Under the pieces are notes generated by a model. The model did no database searches. It was not told the DNA's origin and saw nothing but the letters and a program-made list of their open reading frames with translations. Shown here piece after piece: positions 1 through 18,778 of a DNA stretch of 35,685 nt. Position 1 is the stretch's first letter, and every line of letters begins with the position of its first letter. A program made the position numbers and the translations under genes. Origin of the DNA: Minisyncoccota bacterium (lineage in GTDB: Bacteria > Patescibacteriota > Minisyncoccia > Minisyncoccales > PWPS01). The stretch spans positions 1 to 35,685 of the forward strand of contig JAIPIL010000003.1 in assembly GCA_021734685.1 (NCBI GenBank), in the 5' to 3' direction.

Positions 1-89
1 AAATTATGCGATACATTGTTTGTATTATTTTTTATTGCCACTATACTATCATTAAAAATTATAGCTACTTTTGATGTTAGATTATTCAT
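1..89 (-). CDS. 5' part of a hypothetical protein running off the window edge (MNNLTSKVAIIFNDSIVAIKNNTNNVSHN...)
   Basis: ATG at 89-87 on the minus strand, 29 bp downstream of the nucleotidyltransferase stop, open to the window edge. Too short to assign a function. Confidence 0.45.
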   Translation of the reverse strand, partial: MNNLTSKVAIIFNDSIVAIKNNTNNVSHN

Positions 90-118
90 AAGAAATACAT
101 TTCTTATCTACTCATTGA

Positions 119-1222
119 TTATTTATAATTTTTTATAATATCGTATGAAAATAGTCTATCTATCAAACCACTTTTATCTTTCATTTTAATTTCAGAATTG
201 TACTGATCAAAAATTACTGTCATAACATCATTATTTATATAATTATATTTCTGATAAAGTATATCAACGTTCTTTATTGTTAATATGTCTGGAAAAACTT
301 TAATAACATAATTTAGAGCAAAAAATACATGTCTATCAAAACCATATCTAACAGAATCATTAAATATTTTTTCAGGGTTGATTTCTTTAAAATATGCTTG
401 GATAAATACATATATATCAACAAATTTATATAAATCCAGGACCTTTCTTTTTTTAATAAGATCTATCAATGCTGAGTCTTTGTAAAAGTGGCTACATAAG
501 TGAATAAATAAATGTTCTTTTTTGAGCGAATAGATCGAGAAATTATTATCAACAGGAATAAGAACTCTCTCATCCAAAAAATAATCCACTGCTTCGTCGG
601 GGCTATCTGGTTTCCAGTTTAATGAAAAATTAACATCAATATCAATGGTTTTAATATTTTTTTCATTTACAATTTTGACAAAAGGTGCCATCTCTCCTCT
701 AGTATTTATAGACTGTGCAATTGTATCCTGATTAAACTCATCAATAACACCATTCTTGTAATTATATTTGCCTTGCAAAAAACCTAGCTCATGCAAAGCT
801 TTTTTTACACTTTGGATTGACTTTTTTGACACTAAAATATCAATATCATTAAAAGCCCTAGTGCCTGTCGGATAAATAATGTGCGATAAAATTGATCCCT
901 TTAAGAAAACGTGTTCTATATTTGCTTTACGCAACACTGAAAAGATGCTTTTAATGTACTTTTTTTGCAGTTCTGTCCTTATGCTTTGTGACTGGTGAAT
1001 CATATATATTGTAAAAAATACAGGAAAATCAAGCTTTCGTAAATTGATTGCGTTTATATTTTCATATGCAAGACCGGCAACTCGGTGATAACACAAATAT
1101 CCCAAGATTTCAATCCAATTTAAATCCTTATTCTCAAGTACTGCAAGTAACTTATCTTTTTCCCTTTTTTTATTGCCAAACTTTATTATTTCTAATACAG
1201 CATCATATTCTTTTTTTATCAT
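119..1222 (-). CDS. Nucleotidyltransferase family protein (NTP_transf_5-like)
   Basis: Motif FLKGxxL...YP..TRAFNDIDILV, helical N-terminus with HRVAGL, and C-terminal EHLFIHLCSH...Y.F.DI, all typical of the family. Confidence 0.8.
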   Translation of the reverse strand: MIKKEYDAVLEIIKFGNKKREKDKLLAVLENKDLNWIEILGYLCYHRVAGLAYENINAINLRKLDFPVFFTIYMIHQSQSIRTELQKKYIKSIFSVLRKANIEHVFLKGSILSHIIYPTGTRAFNDIDILVSKKSIQSVKKALHELGFLQGKYNYKNGVIDEFNQDTIAQSINTRGEMAPFVKIVNEKNIKTIDIDVNFSLNWKPDSPDEAVDYFLDERVLIPVDNNFSIYSLKKEHLFIHLCSHFYKDSALIDLIKKRKVLDLYKFVDIYVFIQAYFKEINPEKIFNDSVRYGFDRHVFFALNYVIKVFPDILTIKNVDILYQKYNYINNDVMTVIFDQYNSEIKMKDKSGLIDRLFSYDIIKNYK

Positions 1223-1262
1223 AAATTATTCCATAAGTTAAATAATCAAAACAAAGATTTCG

Positions 1263-2153
1263 TTATGATAACTCAAAGTAATTATCAACAGTGCACCCTA
1301 ATTCTTTTTGTACTGGAAATTCTTTGTTTAGTCTCTTCCAGTCTCTATTAGAGAGTTTAAATTTATTGACATCTAAAATTTCATCGATATGTTTCTTATT
1401 AGAACTTTTAAAGACAATGGAAACCCCGTCTTGTTGTAAAAGCCATTTAGCTGCAATTTGTGTGTTTGTTTTATTATATTTTGTAGCCATTTCATCCAAT
1501 ATTTTATATGTTCCTGTGCGATAATAAGAATCTACAACTCCAGGATATGAAAGTAGGATAGGTCTCCATGCAATAAAATGAATTCCATTCCTTTTGCAAT
1601 AATAGATAATACCTTTTCTTTGAGACTCACGACAAACAAGGTTATATTGATTTTGAATTGCATATAAAGGACTGTTTAGTAACTGAGAATACTTTTTTAT
1701 TATATCAATTCCTACATTACTCAATCCTACATTTTTAATAAGACCCATGTCAAGAAGTTTATTTAAGGCGCCCACTGTTTCCTCAATAGGAACAATGAGA
1801 CTTTGCTTATGAATATAATATAAATCAATATACGGGGTATCTAATCTTTTTATAGATTCCTTACAAGAATTAATCACATTGTCATAAAAGAGATTATATT
1901 CACGAACCTTAGTAGCTATAAAGCATTTATCTCTAGAGATATGTTTTATTGCTTCTCCAATCAGTAATTCAGATTTTCCACCTGCATAGCTTTCCGAAGT
2001 ATCTATGTGCGAAATACCTTTATTAATTGCATATCTAATAGCATCAATATCTTTTTGATCATTATTGTTTGGATTCGGAGTTATTTCTCCTCCCATACGC
2101 CATGTTCCTAAACAAACTTTTAAATAAGAATATCCATTATTAATCGAATTCAT
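1263..2153 (-). CDS. Aldo/keto reductase
   Basis: LGTW, HIDTSESY (Asp/Tyr), IATK (Lys), IDLYYIH (His), GLSN, QNQYNL. The catalytic tetrad is intact. Confidence 0.92.
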   Translation of the reverse strand: MNSINNGYSYLKVCLGTWRMGGEITPNPNNNDQKDIDAIRYAINKGISHIDTSESYAGGKSELLIGEAIKHISRDKCFIATKVREYNLFYDNVINSCKESIKRLDTPYIDLYYIHKQSLIVPIEETVGALNKLLDMGLIKNVGLSNVGIDIIKKYSQLLNSPLYAIQNQYNLVCRESQRKGIIYYCKRNGIHFIAWRPILLSYPGVVDSYYRTGTYKILDEMATKYNKTNTQIAAKWLLQQDGVSIVFKSSNKKHIDEILDVNKFKLSNRDWKRLNKEFPVQKELGCTVDNYFELS

Positions 2154-2259
2154 AAATTTAATAATCTCTATAAATAATTTATCTTACATTATGCCACAAT
2201 TACATAATAATACTTGTGGTGCAATACTGCAAAAATAAACTTTTCATTTCTTTTATATA

Positions 2260-3612
2260 TTAAATATTTATTAAGTTATTAAATCTCTCGATATCTCCCT
2301 CGGAATAGACAACTAATTCTTCAAGAACCTTAATGCCAGCACCATCATTAATAGTTTCTAACGCTAACTTTGATCCTCTTTTTAGGTCATTAATTACTTC
2401 TAATCCAAAGAGATTCAAGGCAACCTCCATCGCCACTGCTTGTTTGAGCTCTTTATTCCCACGACCAATTAAAATTTTAATAAATTCATTAAAATTTTCC
2501 CTTTGGTTCTGAGCAGTCTCTATGTGTTTAAATGGTCTGAAGTCAAACCCAAAATCTTTCGGAGCGATTTCTTTGACAGTTATTCTGTTCTTAATAATTT
2601 GAGTAATTTCGGTGTTGGCTGCTATGGAAATTTGATCAATAATCGGCGTACCATATAAATCTTTTCCCTGCAACACAAGAATATTTTTGTTAGGATACAA
2701 TTTACTCAAAATACCCAAACATAATCTTGTTGATCCTCTTGTCAGGCCATAATTAATTAAATCAACATTAACCGGATTTACTATAGCTGCTCCACCGACT
2801 AGCCCAGCAAATACTTGAACATCGTGCAAACAACCATCGTATACATAATTTAATCGGGGAACGATAGTATTGATATCGAATATTCCAAGTTTTGTTATAA
2901 GTGAAACCTCGGCCATCTTATCAATTGGTAAATTTAGGTTTACTCCAACAAGTTCGAATATATCACCCGACCCAGTTATACTAGAAGTCGCCCTAGATAC
3001 AGTTTTTTCTACTACAATATTTTCTCCAATCTTTTTACCAACTGCCGCTGTAATAATAGCAGCCATCGAACTAATATTTAATAATTTGATTTCTTTTTTA
3101 CCACTACCAGCTAAACTAATTAATTTTGCCTTGTTTTTATCAAGATTTATTTTCTGTTGGATGCTAAAATTATCTAAGCTAAGGGCTGATGTAATTATTG
3201 CTATTCCATATTCAACTGCTCTGTCAAAATTTTCAGGACTATTCATAAATGACCATAATGAACCATAAAAGCACCCCATTAAAATATCTCGATATTTTTT
3301 ATCGTTATCAGAAATTTTAAGTATATTTAAAAACACGCCCCCTACTTTTTCAGGAGGAGGCGACACATTTCCTTGTAAAAAAGAAAGGCATTTCAGGAAA
3401 TTTTCATCTGTTTTTAATTTTTCAAGACTACTATCTGAAAATCTATTGAATTTTGAAAAGTAGTAAAGAGCTAAAATCCCTTGATATACATTCAAATCAT
3501 GGTCAGAACTATTAACCAAATTTAATACATTAAGAATTTCTGATTCTCTAAAATCATTGCCATCTATTATGTGTTCTGTAAATTTTATGATTTTATTTAT
3601 CTGCTTTTCCAT
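2260..3612 (-). CDS. Divergent anthranilate-phosphoribosyltransferase-like protein (glycosyltransferase family 3 fold) with extended N-terminus
   Basis: AGSGKK...LNISSMAAII, KTVSRATSSITGSGDIFELVGV, IDQIS and I.P.DFG align with TrpD GTGGD/NIST/KHGNR.SS..GSAD/DE motifs, but with key substitutions. Confidence 0.75.
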   Translation of the reverse strand: MEKQINKIIKFTEHIIDGNDFRESEILNVLNLVNSSDHDLNVYQGILALYYFSKFNRFSDSSLEKLKTDENFLKCLSFLQGNVSPPPEKVGGVFLNILKISDNDKKYRDILMGCFYGSLWSFMNSPENFDRAVEYGIAIITSALSLDNFSIQQKINLDKNKAKLISLAGSGKKEIKLLNISSMAAIITAAVGKKIGENIVVEKTVSRATSSITGSGDIFELVGVNLNLPIDKMAEVSLITKLGIFDINTIVPRLNYVYDGCLHDVQVFAGLVGGAAIVNPVNVDLINYGLTRGSTRLCLGILSKLYPNKNILVLQGKDLYGTPIIDQISIAANTEITQIIKNRITVKEIAPKDFGFDFRPFKHIETAQNQRENFNEFIKILIGRGNKELKQAVAMEVALNLFGLEVINDLKRGSKLALETINDGAGIKVLEELVVYSEGDIERFNNLINI

Positions 3613-3697
3613 AATCGCCTACCTCAAAGCCTTAAATAATTTCTATAACATTGAGCAGTCAAACTCTCTCTAGTGCTTTAATAATTAAGGGATATTT

Positions 3698-3828
3698 TTA
3701 ATTCTTAGATGTTTCTTCTATTACTTTTCTTACCCCTTCTGCCCTTTTAAAGAACCACAAAAATGACCAATGTGCAACTTCCCCGTTGGTCTATCCCCAG
3801 TAAGAATTCTTTTTTTATTACTGCTCAT
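3698..3828 (-). pseudogene. trpS: Tryptophanyl-tRNA synthetase remnant (N-terminus joined to a C-terminus-like segment)
   Basis: Hand translation from ATG 3828: [32 protein letters not shown] (stop 3732-3730), which is the TrpRS TGDRPTG.LHIGH motif. The -1 frame from 3748 reads [16 protein letters not shown], resembling the TrpRS C-terminal GAEKAR..AEET helix. Confidence 0.85.
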
Positions 3829-3871
3829 ATAGTTTAGATTATAATTTATATCAACCAAAAAAACAACAAAC

Positions 3872-3904
3872 CCCCCATGTCCAACCCCGGGTTGGACATG
3901 GGGG
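3872..3904. repeat. Perfect 16-bp GC-rich inverted repeat
   Basis: CCCCCATGTCCAACCC-C-GGGTTGGACATGGGGG, lying between the divergent trpS remnant and the glyS promoter. Confidence 0.9.
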
Positions 3905-3932
3905 TTGCAAAATTATTTTTTTTAATTATAAT
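3905..3932 (+). promoter_or_regulatory. Putative sigma70 promoter of the glyS leader
   Basis: TTGCAA (3905-3910), 16 nt spacer, TATAAT (3927-3932), just upstream of the structured leader. Confidence 0.6.
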
Positions 3933-3942
3933 TATTTTTATC

Positions 3943-4121
3943 GGGTTTAACTGAGGGAGATTGGCGCCCCTCTTGATATCAGGAGACTCCTGTAGATCAA
4001 AGTTAAACAAATTAAGGTGGCTTAAAAGAGGTTTAACTCTCTTTAAGCAAACTAGATGGAACCGCGGGTAGAAAACTCGTTCTAGTGATTAAAAGGTTTA
4101 ATCATTGGAGCGAGTTTTTTT
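3943..4121 (+). promoter_or_regulatory. Glycine T-box riboswitch (transcription attenuator)
   Basis: Antiterminator: ACTAGA(4051-56), bulge TGGAACC(4057-63), GCGGGT/ACTCGT, TCTAGT(4081-86). Bulge UGGA pairs with the tRNA-Gly UCCA end. A mutually exclusive terminator spans 4072-4121. Candidate specifier GGC at 3963-3965. Lies directly upstream of glyS. Confidence 0.88.
4072..4121 (+). terminator. T-box intrinsic terminator
   Basis: AAAACTCGTTCTAGTGATTAAA-AGG-TTTAATCATTGGAGCGAGTTTT stem (several G-U pairs) followed by a T tract. Confidence 0.85.
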
Positions 4122-4142
4122 ATTAATTAATAATTTAAAGAT

Positions 4143-5537
4143 ATGGAGAAAAAAACTTTAGAAGAAGTAGTATCATTTTGTAAAAGAAGAGGTTTCATTT
4201 TTCAATCATCCGACATATATGGAGGATTTGCTGCTATCTATGACTATGGTCATTACGGAACCCTTTTGAAAAATAACATCCGTGATGCTTGGTGGAAAAG
4301 CATGGTTCAAGAAAGAGATGATGTTTATGCTCTTGATAGTGCTATTTTTATGCACCCTAAAACATGGGAGGCATCTGGACACTTGGCTGGATTTGATGAT
4401 CCCCAAGTTGACTGTAAAAAATGTAAACAAAGAATGAGAGCTGACCATATTCTTGAAGAATTTGGAATAGAGGCCGATAAAGCTCCGATGGAGTTCATAA
4501 ACGAAAAGATAGATGAACTAAAAAAAGAAGGAAAAGTTAAGTGTGTGAACTGTGGATCAACTGATCTAACTGAAGCAAAAAGATTTTCTTTAATGGTAAA
4601 GTCAAACATCGGTTCCCCAGTAGATGTCCTTTCCGAAGAGAATGTTGTTTATCTTCGCCCAGAAACTTGTGGAGGAATATACTTAGAGTATAAAAATATG
4701 ATGAACTCTGTTCACCCAAAACTTCCTTTCGGGATTGCTCAAATTGGAAAAGCTTTCCGCAACGAGATCGTTGCAAGACAGTTTATCTTTAGAACCAGAG
4801 AGTTTGAACAGATGGAGATGCAGTACTTCCTTCACCCTGACCAGATGAAAGAAAAATACGACTTCTGGCACGAGCTTCGTTGGAGTTGGTATCTAGAGTA
4901 TGGAATTCCAGAAGAAAAAATGAACTGGCACAAACACGATGTGATGGCTCATTACGCAACAGAAGCCTATGACATAGAGTTCAACTTTGATTCTCTTGGT
5001 GGGTTTAAAGAGGTAGAAGGAATTCATGCTAGAGGAGATTGGGATCTCTCACAACACTCTAAACACTCTGGAGTTGATCTAAGCTACACTGATGATCAAA
5101 CAAAAGAGAAGTTTATTCCACACATTATGGAAACCTCTGTTGGATTAAACCGTCTTGTTTTAATGTTTATTGATAACGGATATACAAAAGAAAATGTTGA
5201 TGGAGAGGAAAGATTGGTGTTGAAAATAGACAAAAGATTATCTCCAATAAAGGTTGCCATCTTCCCACTTATGAAGAATAAGCCAGAGATAATGGAGCAA
5301 GCAAAAAAAATCCACGAATCTCTTAAGAGAAAGTGGATGTGTGAATTTGATACCAGCGGAAGTATCGGAAAAAGATACCGAAGACAAGATGAGATCGGAA
5401 CTCCTTACTGTGTTACTGTTGACTTTGACTCCTTGTCAGATAAGTCAGTAACTGTAAGAGATAGAGACACGATGAAACAAGAGAGAGTTAAGATAGAAGA
5501 TCTTGAAAGTTATCTTTCTGAGAAACTGTCCCTATAA
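4143..5537 (+). CDS. glyS: Glycine--tRNA ligase, alpha2 (homodimeric) type
   Basis: CKRRGF, YDYG..G, LRPET, QIGKAFRNE, FRTREFEQME, GSIGKRYRRQDEIGTP; insertion with two CxxC pairs. Confidence 0.97.
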   Translation: MEKKTLEEVVSFCKRRGFIFQSSDIYGGFAAIYDYGHYGTLLKNNIRDAWWKSMVQERDDVYALDSAIFMHPKTWEASGHLAGFDDPQVDCKKCKQRMRADHILEEFGIEADKAPMEFINEKIDELKKEGKVKCVNCGSTDLTEAKRFSLMVKSNIGSPVDVLSEENVVYLRPETCGGIYLEYKNMMNSVHPKLPFGIAQIGKAFRNEIVARQFIFRTREFEQMEMQYFLHPDQMKEKYDFWHELRWSWYLEYGIPEEKMNWHKHDVMAHYATEAYDIEFNFDSLGGFKEVEGIHARGDWDLSQHSKHSGVDLSYTDDQTKEKFIPHIMETSVGLNRLVLMFIDNGYTKENVDGEERLVLKIDKRLSPIKVAIFPLMKNKPEIMEQAKKIHESLKRKWMCEFDTSGSIGKRYRRQDEIGTPYCVTVDFDSLSDKSVTVRDRDTMKQERVKIEDLESYLSEKLSL

Positions 5538-7688
5538 TACTGGCCACTCTTCTATCATCAGTGTTTCCTTTTTGTCTGAAAAAGGAAATCGTTGATATAT
5601 CTCCTCGGTAACATAAGGCATAAAAGGATGCATCACCTTTAAGGACTCAAGCAGGATTCTTCTAAGAAGATCCTGTCTTGTTTTCTTTCTGCTCTCATCA
5701 TCAAGCACGCTTTTTGAATCCTCCAACACTTTATCAGCAAAAGTATGCCAAATATAATGATAAATAGTTTCCGCAGAAAGAGAAAACTTAAACTCTTCTA
5801 AGTTTTTTGTTGTTTCTTTGGCTGCCTCTACAAATTCACTATATATCGCCTTGTCCTCATCACTCCAATCTTTCTCAGTAACGCTGTTATCATAATCTTC
5901 AGTTCTCATCATTATGAATCGTGATATATTCCAAATCTTGTTTGCAAAGTTGCGATATCCGCGAATCTTATCCTCAGAAAGTTTAATATCGTTCCCCGGA
6001 GCAGAACCGATTACAAGAGAGAGACGAGTTGCATCTGCGCCATACTCATCAACCATATCAAGTGGATCTATTGTGTTTCCCAAAGACTTGCTCATCTTTT
6101 TTCCTTTTCCATCACGAACCATTCCGTGGAGATAAACATTTTTGAAAGGAATCTCGCCAAGGTTATAGGTTGTCATCAAGATCATTCGAGCCACCCAGAA
6201 GAACAAGATATCATATCCCGTCTCTAAAACATCAGTTGGGTGATACTTCTTTAAATCTTCTGTTTCTTTTGGCCAACCCAAAGTGGAAAAAGTCCAAAGT
6301 CCTGAAGAAAACCAAGTATCTAAAGTGTCCGGATCCTGTTCCCATCCTTCTTCTTGTGGTGGATTGATATCACAGTAAGTTTCACCCTCTTTATACCAAA
6401 CTGGAATCTGATGACCATACCATATCTGCCTACTAATACACCAGTTGTGAAGATTATCTATCCACTGGTAATATATCTTATTAAATCTATCCGGAAATAT
6501 TTTCACCTCCCCTGTTTCAACTACTTTCTGCATAAGTTCCTTTAATGAAACCTCATCTCCTGTTTTAAATCCCTTTATCTTTGAAAAAGAAAGGTTAAAT
6601 TTTTTATTAACATCAACAAACCACTGTTTTTTTATCTGTGGTTCTATTACTCCTCCTCCCCTACTATTTAGAGCAACTCGGTGAGTGTAATTTTCTTCAA
6701 CTTTAACAACCAATCCTTTTTCGCGAAGTTTTTCAACAACAAGCGCTCTTGCCTTTTTAATCTTTAATCCTTCAAATTCTTTTGCGATTGGAAGCATCTT
6801 TCCATCAAATCCAATAATTTGTTCTTTTTCTAAATTGTGTCTTTCTGCAATCTCAAAATCAGTGTTATCATGCCAAGGAGTGATTGTCATTACTCCTGTT
6901 CCAAACTCAGGATCAATAACATCATCCTTGATTACTGTTGCAATTACTTCTCCATTAATCCACTCCACAGTTATTTTTTGACCGTGTTCATATTTTTTAT
7001 AGCGCCTGTCATCGGGATGCATTACAACATATTTATCCCCAAGCTTTGTTTCTGGGCGAGAAGTTGCTATTACAAAAGGACCAAACTGAAGATAATAAAA
7101 AGATGTTTTTTCTTCTTTATACTCTATCTCATCGTCTGAAACAGTGGTCTGCATAAAAGGATCCCAGTTAACAATTCGTGCTCCTTGATAAATAAGTCCA
7201 TCGTCATACATTCTTTTAAAAGCAGTTCTAACTGCTAAGCTTCTCTCTTCATCAAGAGTAAACGCCTCTCTACTCCAATCCAAAGAAGCTCCCATTTTTT
7301 TAACTTGATTTATTATTGTATCGTGATTATCTTTTGCAAACTGATGAACTCTCTCTAAAAAAAGATCACGACCAAGATCGTGCCTCGTCTTTCCTTCTTT
7401 TTCGTATATTATTTTTTCAGTCTTGTTTGCAGTTGCAATCGCTGCATGATCAGTTCCAGGAAGCCAAAGCGTTTTCTTTCCTCTCATTCGGTTAAAACGA
7501 ACTAAAGCATCTTGATACGCAAGCATTGCCGCATGCCCCATGTGTAGTTTTCCTGTAACATTTGGTGGAGGCAGTACAACTGTATATGACTCCCCTTCCG
7601 GAAGATTGTCTGGATTAAAGTATCCGCTATCTTCCCAAAGTTTATAATTTTTTTCTTCGCAAAGTTCGTGATTATATTTTTTTTCCAT
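5532..7688 (-). CDS. valS: Valine--tRNA ligase (no C-terminal coiled-coil arm)
   Basis: PPPNVTGKLHMGH, GTDHAAIAT, WCISRQIWYGH, DTWFSS, KMSKS. Start moved to ATG 7688 (MEKKYNH), which avoids overlap with idi. Confidence 0.96.
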   Translation of the reverse strand: MEKKYNHELCEEKNYKLWEDSGYFNPDNLPEGESYTVVLPPPNVTGKLHMGHAAMLAYQDALVRFNRMRGKKTLWLPGTDHAAIATANKTEKIIYEKEGKTRHDLGRDLFLERVHQFAKDNHDTIINQVKKMGASLDWSREAFTLDEERSLAVRTAFKRMYDDGLIYQGARIVNWDPFMQTTVSDDEIEYKEEKTSFYYLQFGPFVIATSRPETKLGDKYVVMHPDDRRYKKYEHGQKITVEWINGEVIATVIKDDVIDPEFGTGVMTITPWHDNTDFEIAERHNLEKEQIIGFDGKMLPIAKEFEGLKIKKARALVVEKLREKGLVVKVEENYTHRVALNSRGGGVIEPQIKKQWFVDVNKKFNLSFSKIKGFKTGDEVSLKELMQKVVETGEVKIFPDRFNKIYYQWIDNLHNWCISRQIWYGHQIPVWYKEGETYCDINPPQEEGWEQDPDTLDTWFSSGLWTFSTLGWPKETEDLKKYHPTDVLETGYDILFFWVARMILMTTYNLGEIPFKNVYLHGMVRDGKGKKMSKSLGNTIDPLDMVDEYGADATRLSLVIGSAPGNDIKLSEDKIRGYRNFANKIWNISRFIMMRTEDYDNSVTEKDWSDEDKAIYSEFVEAAKETTKNLEEFKFSLSAETIYHYIWHTFADKVLEDSKSVLDDESRKKTRQDLLRRILLESLKVMHPFMPYVTEEIYQRFPFSDKKETLMIEEWPVL

Positions 7689-7693
7689 AACAA

Positions 7694-8194
7694 CTAAAAG
7701 AATTTTCTGATTTCTTGAATAAACCAAGGAGTAAACTTCTCAGGAGTTCGCTCAACTTCTTTTTTTAAATCATCAAGAGATATCCACTTCATCTCTTCAA
7801 CTTCTTCTGGGGAAGGATTAACTTCTCCGCTATAAACTCCTTTTAAGACATAGCAAAACTCATTTTCTGATCCGATATCCTTGAATTTCGCACTATAAAC
7901 AAAAGAACCAACCTCTTCTAATTCACAAGAAAAACCAAGTTCTTCAAAAAGGCGTCTCTTTCCAGCTTCTAAAAGATCTTCATTAGGAGCAGGGTGACTA
8001 CAGCAGGTATTGCTCCAGTACTCTCCCCAAAGCATTTTTTCTTTTGCTCTTTTTTGGATCAACAACTCATCTTTGTCATTAAAAATAAAAACACTGAAAG
8101 CTCGGTGAAGCTTTCCTTCTCCAAGATGAGCTTTTATTTTTTCTTCTCTCCCAACTTCTTGATCTTCTTCATTAACAAGAACTACATAATTCAT
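7694..8194 (-). CDS. idi: Isopentenyl-diphosphate delta-isomerase type 1
   Basis: K..AH...LHRAFSVFIFN, WSNTCCSHP, RRLFEELG, ENE, FTPWF. Confidence 0.95.
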   Translation of the reverse strand: MNYVVLVNEEDQEVGREEKIKAHLGEGKLHRAFSVFIFNDKDELLIQKRAKEKMLWGEYWSNTCCSHPAPNEDLLEAGKRRLFEELGFSCELEEVGSFVYSAKFKDIGSENEFCYVLKGVYSGEVNPSPEEVEEMKWISLDDLKKEVERTPEKFTPWFIQEIRKFF

Positions 8195-12375: not shown

Positions 12376-13035
12376 CTATTTTATTAATTTTCCTTTTTTA
12401 TTTTTCCATTTTTCAACTTCTTTATGATTGCCAGAAAGAAGCACCGAAGGCACTTTCCATTTTTTTTCATCTGCTTCAAAAACCTCGGGCCTTGTATACT
12501 GTGGATACTCAATAAAAGACTCTTTCTTTTTTCTTTCTTTCAAGAAAGATTCTTTTCCAATAACCCCAGGAACAAGTCGTGCCACCGTTTCAACTACGGC
12601 CATTGCTGGAATTTCTCCTCCCATAAGAACAAAGCTTCCGATTGATATTTTTTCATCTGCAATATGCTTTGCAACTCTCTCATCAACTCCTTCATATCTT
12701 CCACATATCATTATAACTTGATCGTACTCTGTTAACTTGCTTGCTTTTTTTTGGTTAAATTTTTTACCTCTCGGAGTAAACAAAACTACTAAAGATTTTT
12801 TATTTTTTAGTTTTATATCAGAAACCGCCCGATATATCGGACCAACCTTCATCACCATTCCACTTCCTTCTCCGAAACAAGCATCGTCAACCGTTCTGTG
12901 CTTATCCGTTGTCCAGTCTCTTAGGTCATGAACATTTACCTCAAGAAGCCCTTTTTCACACCCTTTGTGCAAAATCCCTTTTGAGAAATACTCCTCAAAA
13001 AAAGAAGGAAAAATTGTTATTACATCAAAACGCAT
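12376..13035 (-). CDS. trmD: tRNA (guanine37-N1)-methyltransferase
   Basis: VDD..FG.G.GMVM, ICGRYEGVDERV, SIGSFVLMGGE, EYPQYTRP, VP.VLLSGNH. Confidence 0.97.
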   Translation of the reverse strand: MRFDVITIFPSFFEEYFSKGILHKGCEKGLLEVNVHDLRDWTTDKHRTVDDACFGEGSGMVMKVGPIYRAVSDIKLKNKKSLVVLFTPRGKKFNQKKASKLTEYDQVIMICGRYEGVDERVAKHIADEKISIGSFVLMGGEIPAMAVVETVARLVPGVIGKESFLKERKKKESFIEYPQYTRPEVFEADEKKWKVPSVLLSGNHKEVEKWKNKKGKLIK

Positions 13036-17922: not shown

Positions 17923-18369
17923 TTATTTATTCTTCTCTTGTTTTGAAATAAAACTTGAAATTTCTTTTTTAAATAATTCTAAATCTTTTAAATTTTCACT
18001 AAGAACTTTAAAAATGATTTTCCTGTCTATTTCTCCATATTCATGAACTAGTAAATTTCTCAAACCTATCATTCTGGTTATTTTTTGAGATAAATCTTCC
18101 GAAATTACTTTTTTTCCGAAAAGAATTGAGATGGCGCCATAATTATCTTCAGGTCTTTTCAAGTTAAGATCAATTATTATTAAATGAGAGGTATCAATAA
18201 TTGTTTGAATTGAAAGTTGAAGATATCTTTCAGTGTTTCCAAATAAGTGAAAATCAGACAAAAACTTTTCTTCATCTTCTATCTCTTGACGAAGTTGATA
18301 AAGATAACCTAAATACTCTTGAAAATTATCTAATTTATTTAAAATTTTCTGATAAGTTAAAGATGTCAT
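17923..18369 (-). CDS. HEPN (DUF86) RNase toxin, HepT-like
   Basis: ERYLQ..IQ..ID and the RNLLVHEY (RX4HXY) motif; 1 bp from the MNT gene. Confidence 0.9.
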   Translation of the reverse strand: MTSLTYQKILNKLDNFQEYLGYLYQLRQEIEDEEKFLSDFHLFGNTERYLQLSIQTIIDTSHLIIIDLNLKRPEDNYGAISILFGKKVISEDLSQKITRMIGLRNLLVHEYGEIDRKIIFKVLSENLKDLELFKKEISSFISKQEKNK

Positions 18370-18370
18370 A

Positions 18371-18778
18371 CTAATAGTTTAAAACTCTTTGATTATATTT
18401 TTCTAATACTGGTTTAAAGTCAAAATAATCATTAAGAGTCTTTAATTCAAAATCAACTCTTTTGTCTTGAGATCTTTCAAAAATTATTTTCCCTTCTTTT
18501 AAAACCACATACTTCAAAAAAGATGAAGCCGTGTTTAAGACAACTATATCCGTGTCTTTCTTGAGAAGTTTTGAAATCTCGCCAATTAATTCTAATCTTT
18601 TTTCAAAAAAATCATCAACTTGATGTTTATCAAAAAACAATCCTATATCTATGTCGCTTTTTGAAATGCTCGTTCCTGTTGCCTGAGAACCGAATAAATA
18701 GCAAAACAAAACCCCTTCTTCCTGTTGAAGAAATCCTTTAAGTTCCTTAATCATATTTTCTAAATCTTGTTTTTCCAT
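18371..18778 (-). CDS. Minimal nucleotidyltransferase antitoxin, MntA-like
   Basis: YLFGSQATGTSISKSDIDIG (GSX10DXD), DIVVLN.A, V..EG. Confidence 0.9.
   Translation of the reverse strand: MEKQDLENMIKELKGFLQQEEGVLFCYLFGSQATGTSISKSDIDIGLFFDKHQVDDFFEKRLELIGEISKLLKKDTDIVVLNTASSFLKYVVLKEGKIIFERSQDKRVDFELKTLNDYFDFKPVLEKYNQRVLNY

Follow-up and report, generated by a model that had tools for sequence, protein, structure and literature searches.

Several natural-product gene clusters carry a second, resistant aminoacyl-tRNA synthetase: a tryptophanyl-tRNA synthetase (TrpRS) in the indolmycin and chuangxinmycin clusters, an isoleucyl-tRNA synthetase (IleRS) in the mupirocin cluster, and a seryl-tRNA synthetase (SerRS) in the albomycin cluster. 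The lasso-peptide clusters of Firmicutes contain a kinase paired with a nucleotidyltransferase (PadeK/PsmK with PsmN). Phage 21 and the element e14 represent a third kind of precedent, in which a mobile element enters a protein-coding gene, icd, and the lost function is replaced. Here, we describe an AT-rich island from a Minisyncoccota bacterium (Patescibacteriota) that invites comparison with each of these systems. The island occupies the first 3745 bases of contig JAIPIL010000003.1 (assembly GCA_021734685.1); the whole contig, 35,685 nucleotides long, was analysed and is referred to below as the window. These bases would be the proximal half of a horizontally mobile module of six genes, 7-8 kb in length, that abuts a broken copy of trpS, the gene for TrpRS.

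The module resembles the resistant-synthetase clusters in that a conserved set of enzyme genes includes an extra TrpRS, with a canonical TrpRS encoded elsewhere in the genome (four of the five genomes checked). In contrast, those clusters keep the resident gene, and here the resident trpS is destroyed. We know of no inhibitor pathway with a TrpD-fold protein, a PF14907 enzyme or a TrpRS paralogue. Like the lasso-peptide clusters, the module has a nucleotidyltransferase-kinase-like pair, a PF14907 enzyme followed by a P-loop protein with an HPr-kinase-like signal; however, that signal is weak (1 of 8 members, E 0.028), and the annotated module loci showed no gene for a lasso cyclase, a precursor or a PqqD-like protein. 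As with phage 21 and e14, the element lands in a gene and brings what keeps the function, but these elements bring a substitute gene end, whereas the module would bring a whole substitute gene. In line with this precedent, a related module (L028) is bracketed by 92-nucleotide direct repeats that copy the end of a MacB-like gene; the comparison is limited in that the module has no visible integrase and only one visible junction. A literature search of openly accessible main texts yielded no description of the module, and a term search of PMC12455944 found nothing on it.

The broken trpS gene and the island beside it

The window is the entire contig C5 of a 456-kb, 30-contig assembly (G000) that is 86% complete. 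The island stands at the contig start, and the assembly holds no sequence to its left. Next to the island, an ATG at 3828-3826 opens a frame of 32 codons that carries the N-terminal signature of TrpRS and ends in a stop codon at 3732-3730. The TIGR00233 profile matched this frame at 3742-3816 (E 2.6e-4, 18.7 bits), over model positions 2-26 of 328 only, and 27 residues of the remnant are 92.6% identical to the TrpRS of a close relative, G012. The order in G012 is valS, glyS, T-box leader, hairpin and an intact trpS (325 amino acids). We found that G012 shares 88.7% nucleotide identity with the window over 3746-7799, and none left of 3746. The junction between host and module therefore lies at 3745/3746, inside codon 28 of trpS. 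An earlier note on this DNA, made from the letters alone, had taken the trpS fragment for the leader and auxiliary synthetase of a gene cluster; the sequence indicates instead that it is a truncated resident gene, which runs on into host sequence and ends at the module junction. The real auxiliary TrpRS of the module presumably lies beyond the contig end. It is very likely that the island is part of such a module and that it has broken trpS. The features concerned are as follows.

1-89, minus strand: gene for a P-loop (Walker A) protein, first 29 codons; the N-terminus matches the counterparts in loci L027, L034 and L032, and the gene runs off the contig
119-1222, minus strand: PF14907 (NTP_transf_5) nucleotidyltransferase, 367 amino acids (Pfam E 1.1e-31, 110.7 bits, cut-off 31.2)
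1263-2153, minus strand: aldo-keto reductase, 296 amino acids (PF00248 Aldo_ket_red, E 2e-58, 198.2 bits, cut-off 24)
2260-3612, minus strand: TrpD-fold protein, 450 amino acids (PF00591 Glycos_transf_3, E 3.7e-17, over the cut-off)
3613-3745, minus strand: upstream spacer on the module side, with no similarity to trpS of G012
3730-3828, minus strand: remnant of the resident trpS, with codons 1-28 homologous to trpS of G012, then four foreign codons and a stop
3872-3904, no strand assigned: dispersed palindromic hairpin repeat of 32 bases, terminator-like, between trpS and the glyS leader
3942-4087, plus strand: T-box leader of glyS on the host side (Rfam RF00230, 36.6 bits, E 2e-5, under the gathering score of 93), conserved in G012

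Apart from this remnant, the only match, the TIGR00233 profile detected no full TrpRS in the 30 contigs of the assembly; a full TrpRS is present in 38 of the 41 genomes searched. In five relatives of the same genus (L018-L022), two conserved genes flank a canonical trpS, which scores about 360 bits on TIGR00233. This ancestral site is empty in G000, with the flanking genes 43 bases apart (contig C16, about 12895-12939). Two further genomes, G011 and G012, have only a lower-scoring type of trpS (241-254 bits on the same profile), which adjoins glyS in G012; the G011 contig is too short to show the neighbours. These findings point to a series of trpS displacements within the genus. The module TrpRS would be the sole TrpRS of the molecule assembled here, and loss of the resident gene would be tolerable because the module is expected to bring its own TrpRS, a gene that lies outside the assembly.

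The island also stands out in composition. Its G+C content (GC) is 29.4% over 1-3745, and 35.5% in the remainder of the contig; when the island is taken as 1-3828, its GC is 29.5%, again with 35.5% elsewhere on the contig. Among 697 stretches of this size (3828 bases) from the entire assembly, 1-3828 has the tenth lowest GC (mean 34.9%, standard deviation 2.3%). Among 264 long open reading frames (ORFs), the GC of the nucleotidyltransferase, aldo-keto reductase and TrpD-like genes ranks at the 1.5th, 4.9th and 15th percentile, respectively. Positions 1-3745 hold three complete ORFs, all on the minus strand, plus the first 29 codons of a fourth gene. Much of the description in the earlier note thus stands: its gene calls agree with the ORFs and with the Pfam matches over cut-off, its hand counts of G+C are exact (12/60 at 181-240 and 25/60 at 4801-4860), the AT-richness it described is real, the cluster does continue past the window edge, where bases 89-1 encode the start of the P-loop protein of related modules, and no other trp biosynthesis gene is adjacent, since none occurs in the window. 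The window contains no tRNA gene. A scan of 1-4200 for promoters and terminators gave 36 promoter-like sites, with 25.8 expected, and is uninformative on a module promoter.

Other AT-rich regions were seen as well. The most AT-rich stretch of the assembly lies on contig C25, at about 28000-35800 (25.8-29.3% GC in 3.8-kb windows); it is the sole region with a GC below that of the studied island and is possibly another island. Within the window, 18001-18500 (25.2% GC) is the lowest 500-base window apart from the first 500 bases of the contig.

Recurrence and probable mobility of the module

The gene at 2260-3612 has counterparts, hereafter TrpD-like genes, in 55 loci: 13 from genomes and 42 from metagenomes. 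The 13 genome loci were annotated with Pfam and NCBIfam, and all 55 were labelled by blastp to those annotated proteins. We found two arrangements. Thirteen loci have the arrangement of the window, which includes an aldo-keto reductase (the AKR variant), 37 have a second variant, and five were too short to classify. The gene order of the AKR variant is TrpD-like gene, AKR, PF14907 nucleotidyltransferase, P-loop protein of 385-391 amino acids, divergent TrpRS paralogue of about 400 amino acids and TrpRS of about 365 amino acids. In the second variant, the TrpD-like gene is followed by a UbiA-type gene (in some loci), the paralogue, an epimerase-like Rossmann protein, a methyltransferase and the TrpRS. 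Where at least 6 kb of downstream sequence is available, the module TrpRS is present in 26 of 26 loci and the paralogue in 25 of 26; similarly, the nucleotidyltransferase occurs in all eight AKR-variant loci with at least 2.3 kb downstream. By this order, the last two and a half genes of the window's module would lie beyond the contig end.

The two synthetase-type genes of the module differ in their motifs. On TIGR00233, where the cut-off is 176.75, the module TrpRS reaches 241-267 bits; it keeps both KMSK(S/T) and, in the form TVAN or TIAN, the HIGH motif. The paralogues keep KMSKS and have PTGGT or PTAGT instead of HIGH. The canonical TrpRS encoded elsewhere in four of the five module-bearing genomes scores 331-359 bits, which indicates that the module normally adds a second TrpRS; the fifth, a metagenome-assembled genome without a completeness figure, has the module copy alone. 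No tRNA gene was found inside the module in 20 loci scanned, and no trp biosynthesis genes were found in the 13 annotated loci. These data confirm the recurrence predicted in the earlier note: homologues of 2260-3612 co-occur with an AKR and an NTP_transf_5 enzyme, and always with a TrpRS. The 13 Pfam-annotated loci hold no trp operon genes, and the TrpD-like gene is never in an ordinary trp operon among them, the setting that the note had regarded as speaking against its proposal.

Two kinds of neighbour were observed directly upstream of the TrpD-like gene. One is a 7TM-GAF histidine kinase of 715-742 amino acids, in six second-variant loci (L031, L036, L038, L060, L069 and L070); the other is RtcB, in one of the 13 genome loci (L034).

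The distribution of the TrpD-like gene bears out a foreign origin of the island, as proposed earlier: the gene is absent from all 40 relatives examined (13 of the same genus, 11 of the same family and 16 of the same order), and 400 further genomes of the phylum, sampled evenly, gave a single weak match (119 bits). Across loci, module GC is 29-38% while the flanks span 28-48%; it is below that of the flanks in 14 of the 19 loci with enough flank. The L028 module is bracketed by direct repeats of 92 nucleotides that are 96% identical and 8160 bases apart, the second copy being the end of a MacB-like gene. In addition, broken TrpRS genes abut the TrpD-like end of the module in two lineages other than that of the window, which brings such cases to three. 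In one (L035), positions 6852-7333 (G044:C6:10707-11122) contain two frame pieces that share 92% identity with residues 13-85 and 106-153 of the TrpRS of the module itself; the pieces lie upstream of the TrpD-like gene in divergent orientation, contain stop codons and represent a decayed partial duplicate. In the other (L064:1070-1399 and L065, L066, L067:8703-9032), an open frame of 109 residues corresponds to the C-terminal third of a housekeeping-type TrpRS. The island itself has no recombinase in its visible part, and direct repeats are found in the related locus only.

Transfer RNA genes were seen at both ends of one metagenome contig with a complete module (L047, 8008 bases): tRNA-Ser(TGA) occurs at 50-139 and at 7870-7959, in opposite orientation. 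Either this contig was folded back on itself during assembly, or it is an element flanked by inverted copies of the tRNA gene.

The TrpD-fold protein and the other module genes

The only PF00591 matches of the genome fall in the gene at 2260-3612. Its product scores 97.4 bits on TIGR01245, the equivalog model for anthranilate phosphoribosyltransferase, below the cut-off of 199. The TrpD-like family is a distinct one: it comprises 96 relatives at 39-83% identity, followed by a gap to ordinary TrpD at 27%. An AlphaFold model of the protein has a pLDDT (predicted local distance difference test score) of 87.7, and its best Foldseek matches in the PDB are all TrpD (E 1e-15, template-modelling score to target 0.77-0.82); the ESM Atlas gave generic 'Glycos_transf_3' clusters only. 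The two-domain fold is common to the module protein and TrpD (TIGR01245; e.g. PDB 1zyk, 1zvw and 9ucw), and the module protein keeps NIS(S/T), the lysine of KHGN, the SSxxGSxD stretch and the xNP loop. It is about 100 residues longer than TrpD at the N-terminus.

Other TrpD motifs are replaced, as judged by alignment to 9ucw. The GTGGD loop corresponds to G169, S170, G171, K172 and K173 (GSGKK), which are invariant in 23 members of the family. The DE pair has become DQ: D326 is nearly invariant and Q327 invariant in the same 23. Similarly, KHGN is replaced by K-T-V-S (histidine to threonine and asparagine to serine), again invariant or nearly so. According to the available part of PMC9835598, GTGGD is the conserved loop that contacts phosphoribosyl pyrophosphate (PRPP) and the amino group of anthranilate, and the Asp-Glu pair provides the Mg ligands. 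Because both motifs are replaced, PRPP chemistry by the TrpD-fold protein is doubtful, and the PRPP-dependent phosphoribosylation assigned to it in the earlier note finds no backing here or in the TIGR01245 score. From its sequence, the protein is probably not an anthranilate phosphoribosyltransferase. The same part of PMC9835598 describes TrpD2 proteins as relatives with the TrpD fold that are without the PRPP motif and bind DNA. The module protein is like TrpD2/YbiB in that GTGGD is missing; it differs from them in gene context, and no chain of either name is among the PDB matches listed in the profile and fold searches.

The remaining genes have recognisable families, although none of the three complete genes reaches an NCBIfam equivalog cut-off. 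The nucleotidyltransferase shares 57-84% identity with its positional counterparts in eight related modules, and K108, G109, S113, D126, I127 and D128 are invariant in the nine members. The protein thereby carries G-S ... D-x-D, the signature of pol-beta-type nucleotidyltransferases; it has no relatives in the PDB (best E 0.62). The AKR is 66-82% identical to the AKRs of 11 related modules. Its translation shows DTSESY, ATK and YYIH, which would contain the Asp-Tyr-Lys-His tetrad of AKRs. The P-loop protein is encoded by the fourth gene in related modules, directly after the nucleotidyltransferase. No member of its family has a Pfam match over cut-off; weak matches were to a KaiC-type P-loop in 3 of 8 members and to Hpr_kinase_C in the single member mentioned above. 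An identity as HPr kinase was considered and rejected: a PDB profile search found a KaiC-type P-loop stretch only (E 0.019). The module proteins all have basic isoelectric points, which is to be expected of an AT-rich genome and gives no hint on nucleic-acid binding. By eye, the last 50-60 bases of the spacer upstream of the TrpD-like gene resemble the leader of that gene in other modules; a blastn-short comparison of module upstream regions listed no match to the window spacer.

Probable linkage to glyS, competing explanations and significance

The junction was evaluated in independent sequencing runs; this evidence is drawn from the covered parts of the stretch in runs X2 and X3, and leaves aside runs X5-X7, whose share is small. 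The run that represents the stretch best, X1, which is probably the source, contains a contig of 1574 bases that covers 2327-3900 with one mismatch. As this contig crosses the junction, the joining of module and trpS is real DNA. In run X4, from another study, module pieces occur at about 97% identity, one of them covering 3459-3774. Between this junction and the T-box leader of glyS, which is accompanied by a terminator-like hairpin at 4072-4118, lies the palindromic repeat at 3872-3904, with five exact copies in the assembly (C5, C11, C12, C14 and C25) plus partial copies. The 120 bases from the junction to this repeat, with the start of trpS and the promoter region, share 91% identity with the G012 sequence beside the same hairpin, T-box and glyS. 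It is chiefly on account of this match that we consider the module likely to be linked to glyS at this site.

The alternative is that the module and the trpS stump come from another molecule, or from a close co-occurring strain, and were joined to glyS wrongly via the hairpin repeat. Several results lend weight to it and thus weigh against the account given here. The contigs on the module side have a depth of 5.9-6.0, and the contig on the glyS side one of 21.1; the latter has 54 different letters left of 3896, and the two sides meet only in the hairpin, at which (3867-3906) independent Logan contigs end or start. The depth gap and the differing letters indicate that most cells have another left flank. 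Moreover, run X2 contains the backbone at 7x and no module, and the X4 piece passes the junction by 29 letters, below the 31-letter threshold. The link to glyS consequently depends on the original assembler and on synteny with G012. We nevertheless regard a wrong link as unlikely: by the resemblance of the 120 bases to G012, the trpS stump belongs exactly here in this genus, and X1 showed no further contig of the glyS side that is diverged and has a depth near 6x (the depths in bins 4001-6000 add up to 21.1-22.7), which fits a right flank shared by both arrangements. Even if the link to glyS were wrong, the junction of the module with trpS would stand. With about a quarter of the depth, the arrangement that includes the module represents a minority variant or possibly a false join.

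Other observations also weigh against a mobile module that replaces trpS. Its far half, including the TrpRS that the cell would need, is not in the assembly, which is 86% complete. The window shows no sign of an integrase, a transposase or end repeats; around the island, only short AT-rich chance pairs were found as end or inverted repeats. The composition check gave a divided result: the sliding GC is low, as the earlier note had anticipated, but GC at third codon positions is unremarkable (40th, 13th and 44th percentile for the nucleotidyltransferase, AKR and TrpD-like genes). In addition, some loci are near-duplicates (e.g. L064-L067, L061/L063 and L031/L070), and the counts of loci therefore overstate their independence. 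With these points taken into account, we consider it moderately probable, as the best overall explanation, that a mobile TrpRS module is replacing the resident trpS. In the assembled molecule, the module would replace everything past codon 28 of that gene, and cells with this arrangement would be the smaller share of the population, given depths of about 6 on the module side and about 21 on the glyS side.

What the module does is a more tentative matter. The reading that we favour, with reserve, is a small-molecule mechanism linked to tryptophan. The TrpRS paralogue would most likely activate tryptophan or a close analogue and pass it to a non-tRNA or unusual acceptor, and the TrpD-fold protein would most likely accommodate a partner that is a phosphorylated ribosyl group or resembles a nucleotide, and would do so without PRPP-Mg chemistry of the usual kind. 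Reduction, phosphorylation and nucleotidylation of the product or an intermediate may follow, carried out by the AKR, the P-loop protein and the nucleotidyltransferase, while the module TrpRS would sustain the charging of tRNA-Trp, whether it is immune or simply a replacement. The main functional rival, which we judge unlikely, is that the module acts on tRNA-Trp. In that case, the TrpD-fold protein would bind nucleic acid as TrpD2/YbiB proteins do, the paralogue would serve as a scaffold that binds tRNA or as a modifier similar to GluQRS, and repair or marking of the tRNA would fall to the kinase-like protein, nucleotidyltransferase or methyltransferase. A TrpD fold without GTGGD, as in the DNA-binding TrpD2 of the part of PMC9835598 cited above, fits a nucleic-acid role equally well and so counts against the small-molecule mechanism; two of the six module genes are of TrpRS type, the methyltransferase of the second variant resembles CmoB, an enzyme that modifies tRNA at U34 (E 2.3e-17, below cut-off), and RtcB stands upstream in L034. 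Against action on tRNA-Trp, the loci scanned have no tRNA gene within the module, the AKR and the UbiA-type enzyme of some loci are typical of small-molecule chemistry, and the PDB searches returned TrpD enzymes.

A more specific version of the small-molecule idea, that the module is a selfish 'addiction' cassette, seems to us improbable. Its enzymes (the TrpRS paralogue, TrpD-fold protein, reductase, kinase-like protein and nucleotidyltransferase) would build an inhibitor of TrpRS that resembles tryptophanyl-adenylate, and the module would carry an immune TrpRS and make the host dependent on it: it would land in or next to the resident trpS, the trpS would decay, and the host would then depend on the module. 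Broken TrpRS genes lie at the TrpD-like end of the module in the three lineages described above. Still less credence can be given to the pathway of the earlier note, in which a decayed cluster trpS served resistance or tailoring, and a non-anthranilate amine was phosphoribosylated with PRPP, then reduced and nucleotidylated. The genes are indeed co-oriented and recur together, the TrpD fold is present, and the AKR and nucleotidyltransferase exceed their family cut-offs. However, the trpS fragment is the host's own, as its continuity with host sequence up to 3745/3746 indicates, and GSGKK and DQ occupy the places of GTGGD and DE in all or nearly all of the 23 members.

The new aspects of the proposed mobile TrpRS module would be its landing in a resident trpS and its polymorphism within a population. 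Ultra-small Patescibacteria are thought to be nearly devoid of accessory chemistry, and here more than 1% of such a genome is accounted for by a module that is rare. The module appears to move between distant lineages and would bring its own copy of an essential translation enzyme; the displaced resident trpS would then be a synthetase replacement caught underway, still polymorphic in a natural population. If its product targets TrpRS, the module would represent a new source of synthetase inhibitors and a new route by which mobile DNA becomes indispensable; if it acts on tRNA-Trp, it would represent a new tRNA-centred system. In either case, a TrpD-fold family without the PRPP motif, together with a TrpRS paralogue, offers uncharacterised enzymes with a clear genetic handle.

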